A DNA stretch of 64,000 bases from a virus. Taxonomy: Duplodnaviria; Caudoviricetes. The notes below the pieces were generated by a model that saw only the letters and a list, made by a program, of their open reading frames with translations, did no database searches and was not told the DNA's origin. The first letter of the stretch is position 1. Every line of letters starts with the position of its first letter. The stretch lies in the IMG/VR virus record IMGVR_UViG_3300011008_000999. The stretch is one strand, 5' to 3'. Positions 3,353 through 40,835 of this stretch are shown in pieces. The position numbers and the translations under genes were made by a program.

Positions 3353-3547
3353 CTAATCTATAGGTTTCCATGCAGCCACATCTTCTCTCTTGTGGTCCAT
3401 GTAATAAATATCTTCAAAACAATAACCGCATTTGTAGAATGACGAATCTACCTTAAATGCTTTATATACACGACCGTCTCTAGTCATAATGTATACAAGC
3501 TTACCAAATTCTGGTTCTTCTTTTTCAATAGAAATATATTCACTCAT
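3353..3547 (-). CDS. DUF551-like small protein
   Basis: YISIEKEEPE ... VAAWKP. Confidence 0.5.
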   Translation of the reverse strand: MSEYISIEKEEPEFGKLVYIMTRDGRVYKAFKVDSSFYKCGYCFEDIYYMDHKREDVAAWKPID

Positions 3548-3914
3548 TTATGTCCTCCAAGTACATTGGTACTATCATTTTATATGTAGTCTGCCAATAG
3601 TTAACTGATTCTTTCTTACCTTCAAAAGTTTTGTAATAAAGATCTCTATCACCATTTTGTTTGATTTCTTTTCGAATTCGTTCAAGAATAGTATTAAGTT
3701 TGAGTCGTTTTTCAGGAAATTCATCTATTCGATGTATATCTGTTAGACTTTCACATTTTTCTGGAATAAGAACGATCTGTGTTTTAAGTCCTTTTACATC
3801 AATGAAACCATACTGGTCATGATATGGATAACACATATGATTTGTTAGATCATATTCTTTTGCATACTTATCTATATATTCTTGTACAGTATTTACAAAT
3901 CTTGATGCTTTCAT
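3540..3914 (-). CDS. hypothetical protein
   Basis: ORF with RBS. Confidence 0.65.
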   Translation of the reverse strand: MKASRFVNTVQEYIDKYAKEYDLTNHMCYPYHDQYGFIDVKGLKTQIVLIPEKCESLTDIHRIDEFPEKRLKLNTILERIRKEIKQNGDRDLYYKTFEGKKESVNYWQTTYKMIVPMYLEDINE

Positions 3915-3923
3915 ATAGTCTCC

Positions 3924-4199
3924 TTAATAAATAGGTTTGTATTTATCTTTTAACGACTGTTTATGTTCTTCTATTCGTTTATCAAGATCTCTCCAACTTT
4001 GTTCTTGTTCTTCAGCATCAATCATTAGTAGTAGACCAAATGCTATACCTATTGATATAATCATTAGAATGCCAGATACTATCATAATAATCATACCAAT
4101 TTCAGTTAGCTGATTATGAAATGCAGATGGAGTTAGTCCAAAGAATAATGCGGCAAATATTAAAATACAAATACTAGAAATTCTAAAAGCTTTTTTCAT
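3924..4199 (-). CDS. two-TM membrane protein
   Basis: GGAGG RBS before MKKAF, two hydrophobic helices. Confidence 0.6.
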   Translation of the reverse strand: MKKAFRISSICILIFAALFFGLTPSAFHNQLTEIGMIIMIVSGILMIISIGIAFGLLLMIDAEEQEQSWRDLDKRIEEHKQSLKDKYKPIY

Positions 4200-4225
4200 A
4201 TATACTACCTCCAAATTATATTTGT

Positions 4226-4260
4226 ATTATAACAAAGAAAAAAGTACTTGTAAATAGTTT
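4226..4260 (-). promoter_or_regulatory. class A promoter
   Basis: CTATTTACA-17 nt-TATAAT. Confidence 0.75.
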
Positions 4261-4596
4261 TAAATAAAAAAGAGTTACTCATTATTCATGAATAACTCTC
4301 TAACTTCTTTATATCACATGATATAGACTAGTTATTTTTGCAAATGGTTCAAATTTGATATTTTTATTAATAATTATATTAGCATATTAGAGTATCATTT
4401 TTTGCAAATATAACTTAATCAAAAATGAATTATATAGTAAAGAAATTTGTCATTCTTGTAGGTTTACATTCAGACGCATTTCTATATCTATCACATGCAT
4501 TACAATATCCAAGTCTATATAAAGCAAATAAAGACATACAAAATATTGATATTTGTAATGCAATAATTATAACTTTTTTCATAACTTTTTCCTCTT

Positions 4597-4633
4597 AAAA
4601 AGAGAGCGCTAGCCATATTTCAGACTAGCGCTG
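4597..4633 (-). terminator. intrinsic terminator after the FtsK C-half gene
   Basis: AGCGCTAGTC/GGCTAGCGCT stem plus U-tract. Confidence 0.7.
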
Positions 4634-4642
4634 TTAATCTTA

Positions 4643-7600
4643 CTATTGTGTAGGATTCTTAGGTTTAATATTAAGCTTAATTGTAGGCTTAGGTGTCATA
4701 GGCTGATCTGCAGTCGTCTTATCTATATTAAGCTTAATCTGTGGCTTTTGACCTGGAATCTGATTTAATGCGGCTCCAATTCTTTCTCTATTAGATGGTT
4801 GTCCAAAATTAGGTTGTGAAGGACCACCAAAATTAGGTTGAGCAGGACCTGATGAAGTGAAATTAGGCTGTGCCTGACCAGTAGGTTGAGTAGGTTGTGT
4901 AGTATTGACCGATGTATTAGAAGGTCCAAACATTGCTTCTAATCCACTAAGTCCTAAATCAGGTGAATCTGCTTCTACAGGTTTACTTTCTGTAGGCTTA
5001 GCATCATTAGATTTCTTACCACCAAACTTAAATGTTACTGGTTCTTCTTCATCTTTCTTAGGTGGAGCTTCTGTCTTAGGTGCTTCTTCTGTTTTAGAGT
5101 GATCTTTGAAGAGCTCATCTTCATCAAGATCCTCATCCTCTTCAAACTCATCCTCTTCTTCGATCTCGTCTTCCTCTTCTTCAGGTTCCTCGCCAATCTT
5201 ATGCTGAAGTACCCAACCAGTATTTAACTCATCGAAGTTTTTACCTTGTCTCTTACATAACTCTACAAACACAGGATTATTGTAAGAAAGCTTCTGATCT
5301 TCATCGAACTCCCAGTCCATTTTTAGGTTGTTGTATAATTTGTAAAATTTTGTATAAATTGCTGGACTTCGTTTTTACTCCATAACACTATGTAGTTTAG
5401 CTTATTCTTTTTAGCACATTTACACTTTTGTACATCTTTATTAGTCCATACATATAACGCAACTTTATATTGTGGTCTAGTTTTTGCTTTATTTGTCCAA
5501 ATTTGTACTGTTTCTAAATCTTTTTTATTACGTTTATTAAAGAAATGTCCATTATGGTGCCAATAACCATTAATTTCAATAAACATATCATACGCAGGTA
5601 AATAAAAGTCACAATGAAATGGATAACGTACTTCTTTATACTGTGCTATATATTCAATCTTATTTTGTATAAAGAACTGTTCTAAAGTATCTTCTAGTTT
5701 AGAATAATTACCATTCTTTTTCATTGTATGTACAGCTTTCTTCCATAAAGTTGGATTTTGTACTGCACATTTATTACCATATTTAGTTATGTTAGTTTGA
5801 TTAGTTTTGGCTTTTATTTCTTGATTTTGTTGTGGATTTTCACATCCATACTTTTTAAGATTAGTATGTTTAATTTGTTCTTTTACATGCTCACTTTGAA
5901 ATGCATATTCTGTACCATATTTATTTAGACATGTTTCTTTAATCTTATCTTTTCCATAAGTAGAAGCATATACATTAGTGGCGCCATATTTATCTAGACA
6001 AGTTTGCTCATATTTTTGTCTAGTTTCAATATCTTTTTGAGCACATGAATTTCCACAATATGTACCATAACCAAGAACATTTCCAAAGAACTTAGTAGGC
6101 TTACCACACACTTTACATATACCATCTAAGCCTGATTTTACATATTTATCATAGTATTCTTTATCAGACATCTTATGTTTACGTAAATGAGATGTGATAC
6201 CTTTATTTTTAACATCTTGACCACAAATTTTACAAATCATAATTAACCTCGCTTTTACTTTCATAAAAGATTAGACTATATCATTACTCCTTTCGGAGAA
6301 CCTACTACTTCGCTTTAATAGATTTACACTAAGCTAATCTCACTTAGATACTAACCATAACTGGCGCTACTCTACTCACTTCGTATACTATTAAATAGTA
6401 TCTTATTTTCATCTGTATTTCAAGACCTATAGCTTTCGATAGTCGTTGAACCCATCTCTATTCGAGACTTGGCTGCTGATTTTCCATTCTTAAAACCCTT
6501 AGGACTCGCCATAACGTCCTTAGGTCATCTGTTTAATTTTTTCTACTTTCGTAGCGTTCACACCTGTGCATATTTCATCACTATGTTGTAGCTTAAACAG
6601 CTTTAGGTACGTATCATTATTTGATACTGTTCCAGCAATTCAATAGGTTTAAGGAGAACCACTGGGATTGTTAATTCTCCGGCTGTGTATAATATGTCTG
6701 AGTTTCGATAATCTCATTACCAGAACCAATAAAACCACGACCTTTAATCTGTGGTTTAGCTAACTGAGAAATATCCTTTTCGAACATAAGCTGAGAGGCA
6801 CCATCATCAAATCCACCAAGAAGAACTGACATCTGAATATTGTTCTTCAAGTCAGTAGAAATAGTAGAACCAGAAGCTCTCTGACATGCAAGTGCAAGGT
6901 GAACTGCTGCTGCACGACCAAGACGTGCAATAGATCCAAGCGCCTGTTTAACTATATCAACTGATTTATAGTCATCAGATGTCATAAGCTCATTCAACTC
7001 ATCTGCAAGGAAGAGCAATACTTTAGGTGTATAGATACCCTTTGTCATTCTGATAGTGTTCTTATCAATATATGAATTGTAGCCTTTTACTTCAGGTAAC
7101 TGAGGATTTCTTCCTTCCCACTTGCCTTCCATTATACCATCGTAAATTTTTTGAATAGTAGTAATAATAGGCTGACGTCCATCAGGATAAATAGCTTTCA
7201 TTTTGCTATAATTTCTATCAGATTCATCCAGGTCTACCATAAGCTCGAAGATTTCATCAAACTGAACCTTCTTACCCATAACTTCAAAATAATTTACTTC
7301 TTTATCTTTAATTTTATAAACATTATTGCGTAGATAACCAAGTATCAAACTCAGATTTAGTATAAAATACAAATAATTGTACTTTATTATGTTTAGCTAC
7401 TTTTAACTTATGTGTATCTCTAACTGTCCAAGTATGAATAGCATTTTCAAAATACTTAGATGTTTTAGATTTTTCTATCCACTCTGCTAACTTTTTACTA
7501 TCAGTTTTCTTATTATACGGATGTAATCCATGTGTCCAATGAAAGTTAAGTTCAATATAAATATCTTTAGATGGAATGTATAAATCGCATACAAAAGGAT

Positions 7601-10370
7601 ATTTAGTTGACTTATATCCATGTTTAGCATCTGGATAAATACTTAAAAGTTGCTTATAACATAAATCTTCTGTCTTTGATACCTTAAATGAATGATTCTT
7701 CTTTTTAGTCAGATAACTTTTATGTTTAATTTCAGCTTTTTCTTTATCTGACTTCGACATATATGCATCTCTATGCTTTTGACCAATAATCTTCATTTCT
7801 TCTTCAGTTTTACTATCAAATGTAGCTTGTCTTTTTGCGTAAATTGCTTTCTTTTCTTCATCAGATTTAGCATAATATTTGTCTGAAATTTTTTGCTTTA
7901 CTGATTCTGCAGCAAATGGACTTGTTGTTCCATATACCTTAAGACAAGTTTCTTTATACTTCTTACTATTATTATATGTTTCATCTCCATACTTTTCTTG
8001 ACAAGTAGATTTTCTTTTAAGAATAGATTTTTGTTTTTCATCATTTGTTCTATTTAATAAAGACTCACTCGTCTTATTTGGATTATTGTATGTAGGAGTT
8101 CCATACCTAATAGTTTTAGTAGTTTTAACTGAATCAGAATGTATAGTAGATTTATTTAAGCATGATCTAGAACAATACTTATTATAACCTTTGAAAATAT
8201 CTTTAAAGCTTGTAGGTTTACCACATACTGTACATATGCCTTTTCCAAAGTACATATCATAATATGTTTGTTGACTAACATTATGTTGTTCTAAATGTTT
8301 CTTAAACAACCTATTTGAAATTGGTTGATTACATATTCTACACATTGTTTCATTCATTCTAATCTCTCCTTAGACTATATCTTTACCTTCAACTTAATGG
8401 TCAGGTAGTCACCGCTTCGCTTTCGCTACTCCTTTTCAGGATAGTCGTTGAACTTTCCTCTATTCGAGACTTAGCTGCTGATTGCTCATTATTTCAGTGT
8501 TTAGGATTTAACCATGCACCATCTTAATGTTTCTTTCTACTTTCGTCGCATTCACACTTACGTATATTTCATCGTTATGTTGTAGCACATTAAGCATTAG
8601 AGTTGTCGTCCCAGCAATTCAATGACCATATTCTTGCGCATATTTCTATACGCCCAGGCCAATAATTTTATAAAATCAACCTGCATCTGTTCCATGAACT
8701 TAAATCGGTCCATCATAATCTGTTGGAAATTTGCTACAGCGTCTGCGGCCGTAGGTACATCCAAAGCTACTCCTTTTACGCCCTTTCGGATAACTTCATA
8801 TTTTTCAATACAAACCTGACTATATCTCGTATCTAAAATGATTATCTAAACTGATTATACCATTGATTATCTCCAAATTTTTCTATACAGTAATCCAAAT
8901 ATTTCTGAATATCAGATCTTACCCAAAGAACTACATTATGCGCATCCATACGTTGCTGTTTTGCTTTATCTTTTAATGTAAGATCTTCATCTAGAAACTG
9001 ATCACCTTTAATTTCAATAATTTCATCTTCAATAATAAAATCTGGAAAATAATAGCATTCTTTACCTTCATCATTAGTATATTTGAATCTGAGTGGTTCT
9101 CTTTCGATATGGATTTTATGGTCTATACAATAGATATATACTGCTAATTCCCAAGAACTATCAAAATTTAGAGAATCATACTTATAATGTTTCATAGTTT
9201 TTACATGAATCTCATGATTTTGTTGTGGATTTTCACATCCAAATCTTTGTAAATTAGTTTCTTTTATCTTTTGTTTACCATATTCAGAACCCCCATACAT
9301 TTTCTGTACCATAGCGTTCTTGCATAGTCTGTTTAGATTTTTCTTTTACAGTTTCACCTTGTAAAGAACATGTATTACCATATCTAGACATATTTGTGGA
9401 TTGTGTTTTTAATTTGATTTCTGGTCTTTGCTGTGCATTTTCTACACCATATTTCTTTAAGTTAGCCTCTTTAATCTTTTGCTTTACTGCATCAGCAGCA
9501 TAAGGATTGCTAACTCCATATTTTGATTGTATTGTTTGTTTAACTTTATCTTGTGTTTCTTTAGTAGAAAAAGATGTAGGATAACCATATTTCTTTATAT
9601 TAGTATCTAATCTTTTGATTTGAACATTTTTATCATTATTCATACAGTTCTTATCACAATGTTGTCTATAACCAGATTTCATACTAATAAATTCTGTTGG
9701 TTTACCACAAGTAAGACAAACTCCTTCTTTATCAGATTTTATGTACAGATCATAATACTCTTTATTAGTCAAATTATGATGTTTTACATGCCATGACATT
9801 GATTTATCAGATTCAAATTCTTCTCCACATATTTTACATATAATCATTTCAAATACTCCTATCACTTTCAACTGTAACTCATCTTCAGTCGTACTCTCCT
9901 CACGGAGATAGTCGATACACCTTCAATTAAGCTTGGCACGGTATTACCTGCTATCTTACGAAAGACCGTAGGATCTCTTAGTCAGCTGCTTCGTCTATGG
10001 CCTAAGGCTATATATCTTGTTGTAACACTTCATATAGCAGTCTTATTCAACTGATACCGTTAGCAATATAGAATAAGATCTATATCACACCCTTGAGTAA
10101 TGAGGTTCAATAGGAATGCGCAAAGCTACTTACGCCACGTAAAAGGTTAAATTCTACTCTTTTACAGTCCACACCTACAAGTTGGAATCGATCTGAGTAT
10201 CTAGATACATGGCCTACGATACTCTGTTCACAAACAGATTTACCTGAATTGTGGAATACCGTTCCATCAGGCATTAAGTACATAGGGTCATCTTCTAGTG
10301 AGAATCCAAAGTAAGTGTCGGTTTTCTTTAGTGGTCGTACTTCAAAATCGACCTGTTTAACCACACTCAT
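4643..10370 (-). CDS. FtsK/SpoIIIE-like ATPase A, C-terminal half with N-terminal IntC. Spliced join(10132..10370, 8679..8786, 6674..7328, 4643..5317), 558 aa
   Basis: AAAGGAGG RBS and ATG at 10370. IntC ends HN then SGKS (second half of Walker A), VDCKRVEF, Walker B LLFLADE, IARLGRAAAVHLALACQR, KGRG. Exons sum to 1677 nt in frame. Acidic and Pro/Gln-rich tail. Confidence 0.88.
5318..6673 (-). ncRNA. group I intron 3 in FtsK C-half
   Basis: P1 GGAGAAU/GUUCUCC with U-G pair. P10 UCCCAGU/ACUGGGA. Core GAATTGCTGGAA, AATCAGCAG, GTTCAACGACTA, GATATAGTCT. Terminal G at 5318. Joins QPEN|DWEF. Confidence 0.88.
5323..6240 (-). CDS. intron-encoded homing endonuclease (Zn fingers, KYG repeats, Vsr/DUF559-like PD-(D/E)XK domain)
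   Basis: CKICG..H..H, CKVCGKPT..YC..C, KYG repeats, YPFHCDFY..IEINGYWHH. Confidence 0.8.
   Translation of the reverse strand: MICKICGQDVKNKGITSHLRKHKMSDKEYYDKYVKSGLDGICKVCGKPTKFFGNVLGYGTYCGNSCAQKDIETRQKYEQTCLDKYGATNVYASTYGKDKIKETCLNKYGTEYAFQSEHVKEQIKHTNLKKYGCENPQQNQEIKAKTNQTNITKYGNKCAVQNPTLWKKAVHTMKKNGNYSKLEDTLEQFFIQNKIEYIAQYKEVRYPFHCDFYLPAYDMFIEINGYWHHNGHFFNKRNKKDLETVQIWTNKAKTRPQYKVALYVWTNKDVQKCKCAKKNKLNYIVLWSKNEVQQFIQNFTNYTTT
7323..8357 (-). CDS. intron-encoded homing endonuclease
   Basis: Same architecture (CRIC..H..H, CTVCGKPT, YPFVCDLY..IELNFHWTH). Its stop codon lies in the downstream exon. Confidence 0.8.
   Translation of the reverse strand: MNETMCRICNQPISNRLFKKHLEQHNVSQQTYYDMYFGKGICTVCGKPTSFKDIFKGYNKYCSRSCLNKSTIHSDSVKTTKTIRYGTPTYNNPNKTSESLLNRTNDEKQKSILKRKSTCQEKYGDETYNNSKKYKETCLKVYGTTSPFAAESVKQKISDKYYAKSDEEKKAIYAKRQATFDSKTEEEMKIIGQKHRDAYMSKSDKEKAEIKHKSYLTKKKNHSFKVSKTEDLCYKQLLSIYPDAKHGYKSTKYPFVCDLYIPSKDIYIELNFHWTHGLHPYNKKTDSKKLAEWIEKSKTSKYFENAIHTWTVRDTHKLKVAKHNKVQLFVFYTKSEFDTWLSTQ
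7329..8678 (-). ncRNA. group I intron 2 in FtsK C-half
   Basis: P1 CAGGU/GCCUG. P10 UUAUUG/CAAUAA. Core GAATTGCTGGGA, AATCAGCAG, GTTCAACGACTA, AAGATATAGTCT. Joins MEQMQ-V-NNVYK. Confidence 0.88.
8787..10131 (-). ncRNA. group I intron 1 in FtsK C-half
   Basis: P1 GCGU/GCGC. Core TAACGGT, ATACCGTG, GTGTATCGACTA, GAGATATAGTCAG (same subtype as the nrdD intron). Joins LLRG-V-KGVKGVALD. Confidence 0.85.
8842..9871 (-). pseudogene. intron-encoded endonuclease with +1 frameshift
   Basis: ORFs 9284..9871 and 8842..9312 join if one G is removed from the G5 run at 9290-9294 (NVWGSEYGK). Zn fingers, KYG repeats, FDSSWE..YFPDF..IEIKG nuclease. Confidence 0.75.
10248..10370 (-). other. split intein A, C-terminal piece (IntC, 41 aa)
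   Basis: Block F TYFGFSLEDD and block G GTVFHN followed by the Ser nucleophile of SGKS. Confidence 0.9.
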
Positions 10371-10533: not shown

Positions 10534-10623
10534 AGAATAACCTCTGCCTACGCAGAGAAAACTTATTACTGTAGTCATGAATCTAATTACATATAGAATA
10601 ACCTCTGCCTACGCAGAGAAAAC
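10534..10623 (-). CRISPR. orphan type I-E-like CRISPR mini-array (2 repeats, 1 spacer)
   Basis: Identical repeats GTTTTCTCTGCGTAGGCAGAGGTTATTCT (29 nt, CTCTGC/GCAGAG hairpin) with 61-nt period and a 32-nt spacer. No cas genes in the window. Confidence 0.7.
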
Positions 10624-39800: not shown

Positions 39801-40835
39801 CTATATAATTTCTTTTAAGTAGCTAATATAGAACTCTATTTCTTGTCTGGACCATAATACTACATAATTAAGATTATTCTTTTGTGCAGTATCTCTCTTT
39901 TTTAGATCACTTTTTGTCCAAACATTAATAGCATTAGTGTATTGTTTATGTCCATTTTTTGCTTTATCTTTCCATATAGATAAAGTATCTAGATCGGCTT
40001 GACTATTTTTATCAAAGAAGTGATTATTATGTGACCAATATATATTAAGCTCTATATAAATATCATAGTCGATTAAATAAAAATCACAATAAAATGGATA
40101 TTTTGCTGAACTATATTGTGTCGTAAATCTTATACCAAGATTTGTTAATTCTTTCTCAAAATAATCTTCATCACTAGAATAATTACCATTCTGTCTCATA
40201 GTAGCATTAGCTTTTATTCTTGCATCTCTACTATTACCTGGATTAGTTGTTCCATATTTTTTCATTGATGTAGATATAATCTTATCTTTTACTGATGGAA
40301 GTTGATAAACATTAGTATATTGTTCACCATATTTATGTTTGATCGTATTAACTATACTCTCTTTATGAGAAGCTGATTTATTATAGCAAGTCATACAACC
40401 AATTCCAATTAAATGTTTTGTAGTTTGCTGACAAGTTTTACACCATTTTATAGTATCTTTTTCATGAGCTTTTTTCATATTTACTGAACCAGTTTTTAAT
40501 CCTACTTTACTAGAACTTATTCTAGCTTTTTCAGACTTATTTCGTTCAATCATGTGTTGTCTAGCTTGTTCTATATTTTTAGGATTACTTCTAAAAGTTT
40601 GATTCTGTTTTTCTATTTTGTCTGAATCTTTATTGGAACATTTACTACTACAATATGTATGAAAGCCGTTTGCAAGATTTATAAATTTAGTATCATTTCC
40701 GCAAACTTTACAAGTATGGTTACTATCAATATACTGTATATAGTACAAATCAGATGAAAGTTTATGAGCTTGTCTAATATGTGAACTTAGTGCTTTATAA
40801 CGTATAAAGTCTTTTTCACAAATTCTACATTTCAT
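39801..40835 (-). CDS. free-standing homing endonuclease (same family as the intron ORFs)
   Basis: CRIC..H..H, CKVCG..YCSSKC, KYG repeats, YPFYCDFY..IELNIYWSH. Overlaps the FtsK-B stop by 11 nt. Confidence 0.8.
   Translation of the reverse strand: MKCRICEKDFIRYKALSSHIRQAHKLSSDLYYIQYIDSNHTCKVCGNDTKFINLANGFHTYCSSKCSNKDSDKIEKQNQTFRSNPKNIEQARQHMIERNKSEKARISSSKVGLKTGSVNMKKAHEKDTIKWCKTCQQTTKHLIGIGCMTCYNKSASHKESIVNTIKHKYGEQYTNVYQLPSVKDKIISTSMKKYGTTNPGNSRDARIKANATMRQNGNYSSDEDYFEKELTNLGIRFTTQYSSAKYPFYCDFYLIDYDIYIELNIYWSHNNHFFDKNSQADLDTLSIWKDKAKNGHKQYTNAINVWTKSDLKKRDTAQKNNLNYVVLWSRQEIEFYISYLKEII

Follow-up and report, generated by a model that had tools for sequence, protein, structure and literature searches.

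Three predicted group I introns with nuclease genes interrupt an FtsK/SpoIIIE-like ATPase gene in a giant phage lineage

The presence of several group I introns in a single phage gene has been described before. In Staphylococcus phage Twort, orf142 contains three of them (Landthaler and Shub 1999, PMC22036, as cited in PMC11878797), two or three are present in the DNA polymerase and terminase genes of the Bastillevirinae, and exon skipping has been documented for phage genes that carry several group I introns (PMC11878797). The group I intron in recA of Bacillus phage 0305phi8-36 is associated with I-Bth0305I, which belongs to the 'EDxHD' family of Vsr-like homing endonucleases (PMC3239194). 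In the huge Jug and crAss-like phages from animal guts, with genomes of 360–402 kb, a mean of 18.5 group I introns per genome occurs together with inteins and PD-(D/E)XK-type nucleases, and metatranscriptomes confirmed splicing for about half of the predicted introns; terL, nrdD and polymerase genes are reported there as hosts, and FtsK is mentioned 0 times (PMC12880540). Here we analyse a stretch of 64,000 nucleotides (nt), referred to below as the window, from the IMG/VR virus record IMGVR_UViG_3300011008_000999 (Duplodnaviria; Caudoviricetes), in which an FtsK/SpoIIIE-like ATPase gene on the minus strand is interrupted by three intervening sequences. We estimate a probability of roughly 88% that all three are functional group I introns that are needed to make the protein, with intron 1 being the least certain of them.

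The locus resembles Twort orf142 and the Bastillevirinae genes in having several phage-type (IA-like) group I introns per gene, short internal exons and a risk of exon skipping. It differs from them in its host gene, which is an FtsK/SpoIIIE-like ATPase gene here and a tail, polymerase or terminase gene there, as well as in scale: relatives of this locus reach at least six introns per allele and at least 14 insertion sites, with an apparent dependence on a split intein in addition. With the Jug and crAss-like phages it shares introns, inteins and PD-(D/E)XK-type nucleases that interrupt core genes, and the related contig L001 is 394 kb in length. In contrast, the introns of those phages average 206 nt, whereas those of the window are 1.35 kb long with open reading frames (ORFs). 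A literature search found no published group I intron in an FtsK-type phage gene; the Moonbeam note has both, in different genes. An earlier reading of the window from its letters alone (the sequence-only reading) had described group I introns as unusual in an FtsK-type gene. This description agrees with the published record as searched, but not with the present lineage, where they are the rule, or with the huge gut phages, where group I introns are common (PMC12880540).

The FtsK-like gene is seen on the minus strand as ORF fragments at 10469-10107, 7372-6671 and 5320-4643, and the ORFs located between these fragments (195+156, 344 and 313 amino acids, aa) resemble nuclease genes more than pieces of the ATPase. 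Joining of exons A, B, C and D (Table 1) gives 1677 nt, corresponding to 558 codons and a stop codon, with no internal stop. Exon A encodes a 41-aa intein C-piece (10370-10248) ending in VFHN, followed by the C-extein from SGKSV... to ...LLRG, and ends with two bases (GT) of a Val codon. Exon B (KGVKGVALDVPTAADAVANFQQIMMDRFKFMEQMQ) supplies the third base of this Val codon, then 35 codons, and finally two bases of a second Val codon, and exon D contains the end of the ATPase region followed by an acidic low-complexity tail. With a slash for the splice junction, the junction sequences are CGTGGCGT/AAAGGG for intron 1, CAGGT/CAATAAT for intron 2 and GAGAAT/GACTGG for intron 3. The sequence-only reading had proposed these three introns and an in-frame joining of the exons, including the one of 108 nt, to 558 aa; on reading the sequence and checking the junctions, its intron borders proved exact on the minus strand and the frame unbroken at each junction. 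It is noted that exon B is exactly 36 codons long and that both flanking introns are in the same codon phase, so that a transcript without exon B would stay in frame and its ATPase domain would be 36 residues shorter.

The predicted joining can be compared with alleles of related contigs in IMG/VR. L001 is a 394-kb contig with terminal repeats that is 98% identical, and L002 is a 290-kb contig that is 88% identical in exon C. Introns 1, 2 and 3 are all absent from L002, in which exons A-D are contiguous at all three sites and match the predicted spliced product residue for residue, with the joints ...EFNLLRGV-(K/M)GVKGVALD..., ...MEQMQV-NNVYKIKD... and ...YYTQPE(N/D)-DW.... L001 has an ORF-less intron 1 (335 nt) and an ORF-less intron 3 (432 nt) at the same sites and an intron 2 that retains its ORF, and intron 3 is present with its ORF in L012. 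The same sites are thus found empty, occupied by a ribozyme only, or occupied by a ribozyme together with a nuclease gene, as expected from the well-known life cycle of mobile group I introns.

Comparison of the exons to those of L001 found 13 differences in the 105 positions of exon B, of which 13 are synonymous and 0 non-synonymous, and 44 synonymous and 5 non-synonymous codon differences in exon C. Judged from these substitutions, exon B is under purifying selection. The entirely synonymous nature of its differences indicates that this 36-codon exon is translated in the predicted frame, despite having no conserved start signal of its own. The gene had also been proposed to be essential in the sequence-only reading; conservation and purifying selection are indeed seen, and essentiality itself stays a supposition.

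All three introns are preceded by a U in the exon and have a terminal G (at 8787, 7329 and 5318, respectively). Where a junction can slide, the chosen border is the sole U...G solution among those yielding the same mRNA. Among the junctions mapped by protein colinearity in the window and seven related loci, U...G can be placed at 23 of 25, including 7 of the 7 that colinearity fixes uniquely. The two failures are tblastn artefacts, one of which was resolved by hand, the other being a high-scoring segment pair at the truncated end of the L010 contig. An apparent 'LLRGV' duplication before an intron of L011 was rejected, since tblastn had extended its alignment too far, into the P2 region of the intron; the junction is in fact KR/VEF.

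The pairings between introns and exons were evaluated against 5000 decoy exon flanks. For intron 3, P1 (GGAGAAU with GUUCUCC) and P10 (ACUGGGA with UCCCAGU) amount to 7 + 7 = 14 base pairs (bp), which 1 of the 5000 decoys matches. For intron 2, P1 (CAGGU with GCCUG) and P10 (CAAUAAU with AUUAUUG) amount to 5 + 7 = 12 bp, matched by 12 decoys, and for intron 1, P1 (GCGU with GCGC) and P10 (AAAG with CUUU) amount to 4 + 4 = 8 bp, matched by 581. In intron 1, the P1 helix reaches beyond the splice site and forms a 7-bp hairpin, GCGU/AAG with UUUGCGC, which includes the U-G pair. A P1 with a U-G pair and a terminal G, both noted by the sequence-only reading, are therefore present in all three introns. 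The P10 that it also described is far beyond the decoys in introns 2 and 3, but has 4 bp and is within chance when taken alone in intron 1.

When short stretches upstream of the ORFs were searched, full-length matches to the Rfam group I intron model RF00028 were obtained for intron 2 at 8368-8659 (38.2 bits, E 2e-8) and for intron 3 at 6252-6682 (27.8 bits, E 3e-5). The low scores are due to large insertions, namely the P5 extension, P7.1/P7.2 and the ORFs. Since only short stretches gave matches to the model, absence cannot be deduced when Rfam finds nothing in a long window. The hallmark stretches of introns 2 and 3 are AAUUGCUGG (J3/4-P4), AAUCAGCAGCCAAG (P4'-P6), GUUCAACGACUA (J6/7-P7) and GAUAUAGUC (J8/7-P7'). 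Between the P7 strand GACUA and the P3' strand, at least two extra hairpins (P7.1/P7.2) are found in all three introns, and by these hairpins introns 2 and 3 appear IA-like, that is, of subgroup IA, the usual phage type.

RNAalifold applied to five copies predicts P3, P4, a branched P5 extension and P6, with compensatory change in 23 of 48 pairs. A covariance model of P3-P7, termed R1, was built from five copies and searched against the window and the loci of seven relatives. R1 scores intron 2 with 200 bits and intron 3 with 230 bits. It finds 19 copies, all on the gene strand, 18 of which are located between exons of the FtsK-like gene and the nineteenth in another gene of the L001 phage; no further copy was found within the window, and intron 1 was not detected by R1. 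In the alignment of the 19 copies, as fitted to the model, standard pairs occupy 95.2% of the cells, versus 27-43% with slid partners. Both sides are changed in 31 of the 45 pairs, and 0 of 500 shuffles reach the observed paired cells or covariation score. In the 394-kb relative, a copy of the intron 2/3 family lies in a different gene ~34 kb away (locus L006, G001:C1:229419-232626), and two more weak RF00028 matches are present in the same relative (G001:C1:326589-326838 and 87590-87725).

The layout of introns 2 and 3 is similar to that of the T4 nrdD (sunY) intron, which reportedly has an ORF downstream of the core and a remote 3' junction with P10 and P9.0-type pairings. The nuclease family is different, and unlike in the T4 intron, the ORF of intron 2 begins immediately behind P7' and has its end within the exon that follows.

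Intron 1 is a member of a second, more divergent family, for which five members from sites 43/44, 71/72 and 80/81 (in codons of the 558-aa frame) were compared among the window, L001, L010 and L011. Rfam matches in this family cover J8/7-P7'-P9 only, with 21 bits (E 0.003-0.005), and come from relatives that lack the ORF or retain a remnant of it, namely from L001, whose copy is ORF-less, and from a copy of L011. RNAalifold on the five members predicts a common long-range P3, a P2 hairpin, P7.1/P7.2 and a P4-P6 region, with 19 of the 62 predicted pairs changed on both sides. P8 and P9 show compensatory changes between L001, L010 and L011, and the P4-P6 pairing in intron 1 is ambiguous. The P7 of intron 1, GACUA with UAGUC, is identical to that of the intron 2/3 family, and the ribozyme portion of intron 1 shares 95% identity with its counterpart in L001. 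The P8 stem of L001 closes on a short loop exactly at the position of the ORF in intron 1 of the window, and just a remnant of the ORF start is left in P8 of L010. From reading of the sequences, the guides of this family change with the exon context of the site: the window has CUUU-GCGC, site 71/72 of L011 has UUCAAU-GCGC, and site 43/44 has UUUU-GCUC. Folding of the ORF-less intron 1 by minimum free energy is uninformative (z = -1.05), as would be expected for a pseudoknotted ribozyme. In these sequence comparisons, the statistical support for intron 1 is weaker than that for introns 2 and 3. The conserved core that the sequence-only reading had recognized in each intron is nevertheless borne out, by RF00028 and covariation for introns 2 and 3 and by the family comparison for intron 1. 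It should be mentioned that the 10-mer AGTAGCTTTG is found twice, once at the beginning of intron 1 (10121-10130), in overlap with the guide sequence, and once inside exon B (8761-8770).

Each intron contains a nuclease-like gene (Table 1). The enzyme of intron 3 matches Pfam PF24308 with 58.4 bits (cut-off 27) and is composed of a zinc finger, DUF7487 helical repeats and a C-terminal Vsr-like domain; a longer version of its ORF, from 6264, begins within the P9 hairpin. Its family includes 403 metagenome homologues, many of them on contigs of 200-530 kb and one of them named a Vsr endonuclease by the Joint Genome Institute (JGI). The AlphaFold model of this enzyme (predicted local distance difference test score, pLDDT, 90.4) starts with a zinc finger, continues with helical repeats and closes with an alpha/beta domain at the C-terminus. 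Its top three Foldseek matches are the Vsr structures 1cw0 and 1vsr and the catalytic domain of I-Bth0305I (3r3p), all with weak E-values, the best being 0.026. The invariant residues D219, E230, H237, H240 and D249 could correspond to EDxHD, although the literal motif is absent (IEINGYWHH). Sequence searches of the PDB with the nuclease and its family profile returned zinc-finger noise only and no match to 3r3p. The intron 2 ORF matches PHROG 3339 only, and not PF24308, and is 31% identical to the intron 3 enzyme; the ORFs of both introns match homing-endonuclease PHROG families. As modelled or aligned, the nucleases of introns 2 and 3 would both end in a Vsr-like domain. A free-standing gene of the DUF7487/Vsr-like type is located at 39801-40835 of the window; its product and the intron 2 enzyme share 28% identity (E 7e-29).

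The similarity to I-Bth0305I (PMC3239194) consists of an intron-borne gene whose product has an N-terminal DNA-binding part and a C-terminal Vsr-fold nuclease. The two differ in the DNA-binding part, made of a zinc finger and DUF7487 repeats here and of NUMOD motifs there, and in the location of the ORF, which is after P9 or in P8 here and in P5 there. In relatives, the ORF of the intron 2/3 family is found in P8 (L002) or upstream of P3 (L011), and these varied positions imply that nuclease genes entered these ribozymes several times. Three introns of L011 carry nuclease ORFs upstream of P3.

The intron 2 ORF begins 13 nt past P7', behind AAGGAG, and fills the 3' part of the intron. It crosses the 3' splice site with its last sense codon and stop (7325-7323, nt 4-6 of exon C), as does the ORF in L001. 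With the stop codon of the ORF placed in exon C, the full-length enzyme could be made only from unspliced RNA, and ribosomes would overrun the P10 region. In intron 1, the nuclease frame shifts at a run of five G residues (9294-9290), and the resulting ORFs end at 9284 and 8842; this GGGGG frameshift could reflect a pseudogene, a sequencing error or slippage. The N-terminal part of the intron 1 nuclease contains a zinc finger and DUF7487 (PF24308, E 1.5e-17 and 7e-8; 64.7 bits, cut-off 27), and its C-terminal part (8842-9312) is similar to the TnsA-like PD-(D/E)XK family PF08722 at E 1.5e-4, which is below the cut-off. A C-terminal part that is TnsA-like instead of Vsr-like implies that the DUF7487 DNA-binding module has been joined to more than one type of nuclease domain.

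On the minus strand, the 3'-terminal ~25 nt of intron 3 (5318-5347), including the final nuclease codons, resemble the last ~25 nt of exon C (6674-6703) in register. The local alignment score of 12 is reached by ~25 of 20000 random 30-mers. The end of exon C in L002 matches the end of intron 3 equally well, and the L012 copy retains only part of the resemblance, which may be a relic of the entry of the nuclease gene into the intron.

Table 1. Positions of the exons, predicted introns, ribozyme elements, nuclease genes and terminator-like hairpin in the window
Feature	Position	Strand	Remarks
Exon A	10132..10370	(-)	from translation; colinear with L002 5653-5891
Intron 1	8787..10131	(-)	1345 nt; predicted group I, second, more divergent family
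Intron 1 elements	P1 hairpin 10135-10118; P7 GACUA 9913-9909 with UAGUC 8822-8818; P9 ~8817-8794	(-)	
Homing endonuclease gene of intron 1	8842..9847	(-)	ATG 9847; apparently broken; in P8 loop
Exon B	8679..8786	(-)	108 nt; colinear with L002 5892-5999
Intron 2	7329..8678	(-)	1350 nt; predicted group I, subgroup IA-like
Intron 2 core P1-P7'	8678-8358	(-)	P7 GACUA 8446-8442 with UAGUC 8377-8373
Homing endonuclease gene of intron 2	7323..8357	(-)	344 aa; PHROG 3339 'homing endonuclease', E 1e-14
Exon C	6674..7328	(-)	655 nt; FtsK/SpoIIIE ATPase core with Walker B LLFLADE
Intron 3	5318..6673	(-)	1356 nt; predicted group I, subgroup IA-like
Intron 3 core P1-P9	6673-6252	(-)	P7 GACUA 6444-6440 with UAGUC 6278-6274; P9 hairpin 6269-6252
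Homing endonuclease gene of intron 3	5323..6240	(-)	likely ATG 6240 after GAGG; lies after P9
Exon D	4643..5317	(-)	224 codons and stop; colinear with L002 from 8303 and L001 from 7087
Intrinsic terminator-like hairpin	4605..4632	(-)	just 3' of the exon D stop codon

We propose that the part of the gene encoding the C-terminal portion of the ATPase would be transcribed into a single ~5.8-kb precursor, which extends between the start codon (10370) and the terminator (~4605) and contains three mobile group I introns. Each intron would fold as a ribozyme from P1 to P9 with a G-binding P7, and two transesterifications are expected. An external guanosine would attack after the exon U that is paired with G in P1; P10 would then align the next exon and the terminal G would be released. 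In introns 2 and 3, the remote 3' splice site, ~1 kb from P7, would be brought in by the 7-bp P10. Translation of the ligated mRNA would give 558 aa, comprising the 41-aa intein C-piece and the ATPase from the SGKS half of its P-loop on. In introns 2 and 3, the DNA-binding domains (zinc finger and DUF7487) are fused to the predicted Vsr-like nucleases, which presumably cleave alleles that lack the intron and so promote homing. The hairpin after exon D is the sole strong terminator-like hairpin on the gene strand; between it and position 10370, the P1 stem of intron 1 gives the only other terminator-like match on that strand. Just upstream of the gene, two identical hairpins TCTCTGCGTAGGCAGAGG are found at 10541-10558 and 10602-10619 on the minus strand, 61 nt apart, and both were scored as terminator-like in the scan.

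The anatomy of the gene, its junctions, the conservation, the covariation and the presence/absence polymorphism are direct observations on which the assignment as group I introns is based. Several other observations weigh against this assignment. Neither Rfam at gathering scores over the whole window nor a 12-kb scan at E up to 10 gave a group I match; the search with group I models that the sequence-only reading had suggested returned full-length RF00028 matches in short stretches of introns 2 and 3 and nothing window-wide. The RF00028 scores of 38.2, 27.8 and 21 bits are all below the gathering score of 50, which is a curators' cut-off and not a biological feature. The alignment used for counting covariation had been fitted to the model, and the count is thereby biased towards the structure. 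In introns 2 and 3, ~1 kb separates the core from the 3' splice site, and no convincing closing helix (P9/P9.0) of intron 2 was found when it was sought by eye. For intron 1, the P1 and P10 pairings with the exons (4+4 bp) are not beyond chance alone, the P3-P6 region of its family has no Rfam match, and its nuclease gene is broken, so that this intron may be decaying. From sequence we infer, moreover, that the introns actually splice, that the ribozymes are self-sufficient and that the nucleases are active.

If the group I elements are real but at least one of them, with intron 1 as the main candidate, splices inefficiently or needs a protein helper, the allele would make little or no full-length ATPase, or would make it only late or conditionally. 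Such poor splicing would fit the short exon pairings and the frameshifted nuclease gene of intron 1 and, in introns 2 and 3, a 3' splice site ~1 kb away from P7. It would also fit a competition between ribosome and ribozyme at the 3' splice site of intron 2, which the ORF of this intron overruns, and the exon skipping documented in multi-intron phage genes (PMC11878797), with a skip of exon B keeping the frame. We nevertheless consider it unlikely, given the purifying selection on exons in intron-bearing genomes, the 95% identity of the intron 1 ribozyme to its L001 copy and the covarying helices across its family. The T4 nrdD (sunY) intron, moreover, is said to splice with an ORF downstream of its core. 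A truly fragmented gene, with nuclease genes inserted between pieces that would each be translated on their own and come together as subunits with no splicing of RNA, would have a model in the split nrdA or topoisomerase genes of T4-like phages. Although free-standing nucleases of the same family are present in the window and the last three bases of intron 3 provide an in-frame ATG before exon D, this ATG is missing in L001, and neither exon B, with its 36 codons, nor exon C has a conserved start codon or ribosome-binding site. Covarying ribozyme cores flank every nuclease gene and persist after loss of the nuclease, and the borders follow the U...G rule, all of which makes separate translation very improbable. 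An element of another kind (group II intron, intein or archaeal-type bulge-helix-bulge intron) or an assembly artefact has nothing but the sub-threshold Rfam scores in its favour and is hardly credible. Inteins were ruled out as the intervening sequences by stop codons in the exon frame of all three, and group II introns by the lack of a reverse transcriptase and of any group II RNA match, while the arrangement recurs in independent assemblies from several studies (L001/L007, L012). Three functional group I introns in one gene remain the reading that we favour.

Assignment of the host gene to the FtsK/SpoIIIE type was also examined. The uninterrupted L002 allele matches Pfam PF01580 (FtsK_SpoIIIE) with 56.3 bits (cut-off 24) over a stretch that includes junctions 1 and 2; exon C alone reaches 23.4 bits. 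The gene also matches PHROG 1358, 'FtsK/SpoIIIE-like' (E 3e-22). In addition to the Walker B motif LLFLADE, a Walker A motif would read GGTG-SGKS once the intein pieces are ligated: a separate upstream gene ends in ICGGTG followed by C, and a free Hint-domain gene is located between this gene and exon A. The sequence-only reading had linked RNA splicing at this locus to protein trans-splicing in three parts, and the VFHN/SGKS and ICGGTG/C ends with the free Hint-domain gene between them agree with that link. These ends are consistent with a P-loop that would be rebuilt by protein splicing. A tblastn search of GenBank phages with exon C gave two distant matches only, with 26% identity, indicating that there is no cultured relative.

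Mapping of the exons in eight related contigs (the window, L001, L002 and L008-L012) revealed at least 14 insertion sites within ~300 codons, and up to six introns per allele. In codons of the 558-aa frame, the sites are 43, 46, 50, 71, 80, 108, 116, 227, 230, ~255, ~263, ~284, 297, 301 and 334; L012 has an additional gap near 296-317. Six introns are present within 7 kb in L011 and five in a 4.2-kb fragment in L010 (1-4229), both being more distant relatives, and four in L001. The sites in the relatives of this gene are unusually dense. The fourth intron of L001 (3669-3991) is ORF-less, 323 nt long and inserted in the P-loop codons (S-V/C) at site 46/47, five residues past the intein junction. 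Preceded by a U and with G as its final base, it has no Rfam match and probably represents a third intron family. A probable mini-exon of ~8 codons is located between two introns (3540-5826) in L011 (1-7044).

In a tree of the P3-P7 cores, some copies from the same site group together, for example those of the window and L001 at site 334. Other groups join different sites with high support, namely L001 116 with L008 108, L011 230 with L009/L010 301, and L002 297 with L009/L010 227. The cores of the window and L001 at site 116 are not sisters, though their nuclease genes are ~90% identical. The core tree suggests movement between sites and recombination of modules. Related cores at different sites, retuned guides, and ORFs placed before P3, in P8 or after P9 would together imply ongoing spread, through reverse splicing or nuclease retargeting. 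We tentatively put forward, at somewhat less than even odds, that the FtsK-like gene is an exceptional intron sink for a bacterial virus, with introns spreading within one gene and ribozyme and nuclease modules being shuffled. If true, the intron sink combined with the three-piece intein would provide a natural system for intron proliferation and for the timing of layered splicing of a motor.

The basic finding is textbook biology; the host gene and the site density are what is noteworthy. The annotation of the locus is corrected, as four ORF fragments and three 'hypothetical' genes become one FtsK-like ATPase gene and three mobile introns with nucleases. The intron-less, ORF-less and ORF-bearing alleles of the same sites are ready substrates for homing and splicing assays. 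DUF7487 gains a concrete setting in intron-borne homing endonucleases, with predicted Vsr-like nuclease domains in introns 2 and 3, and an FtsK/SpoIIIE-type gene is added to the hosts of phage group I introns. The correction matters for the functional reading of this giant phage and for the split-intein account of the same gene.

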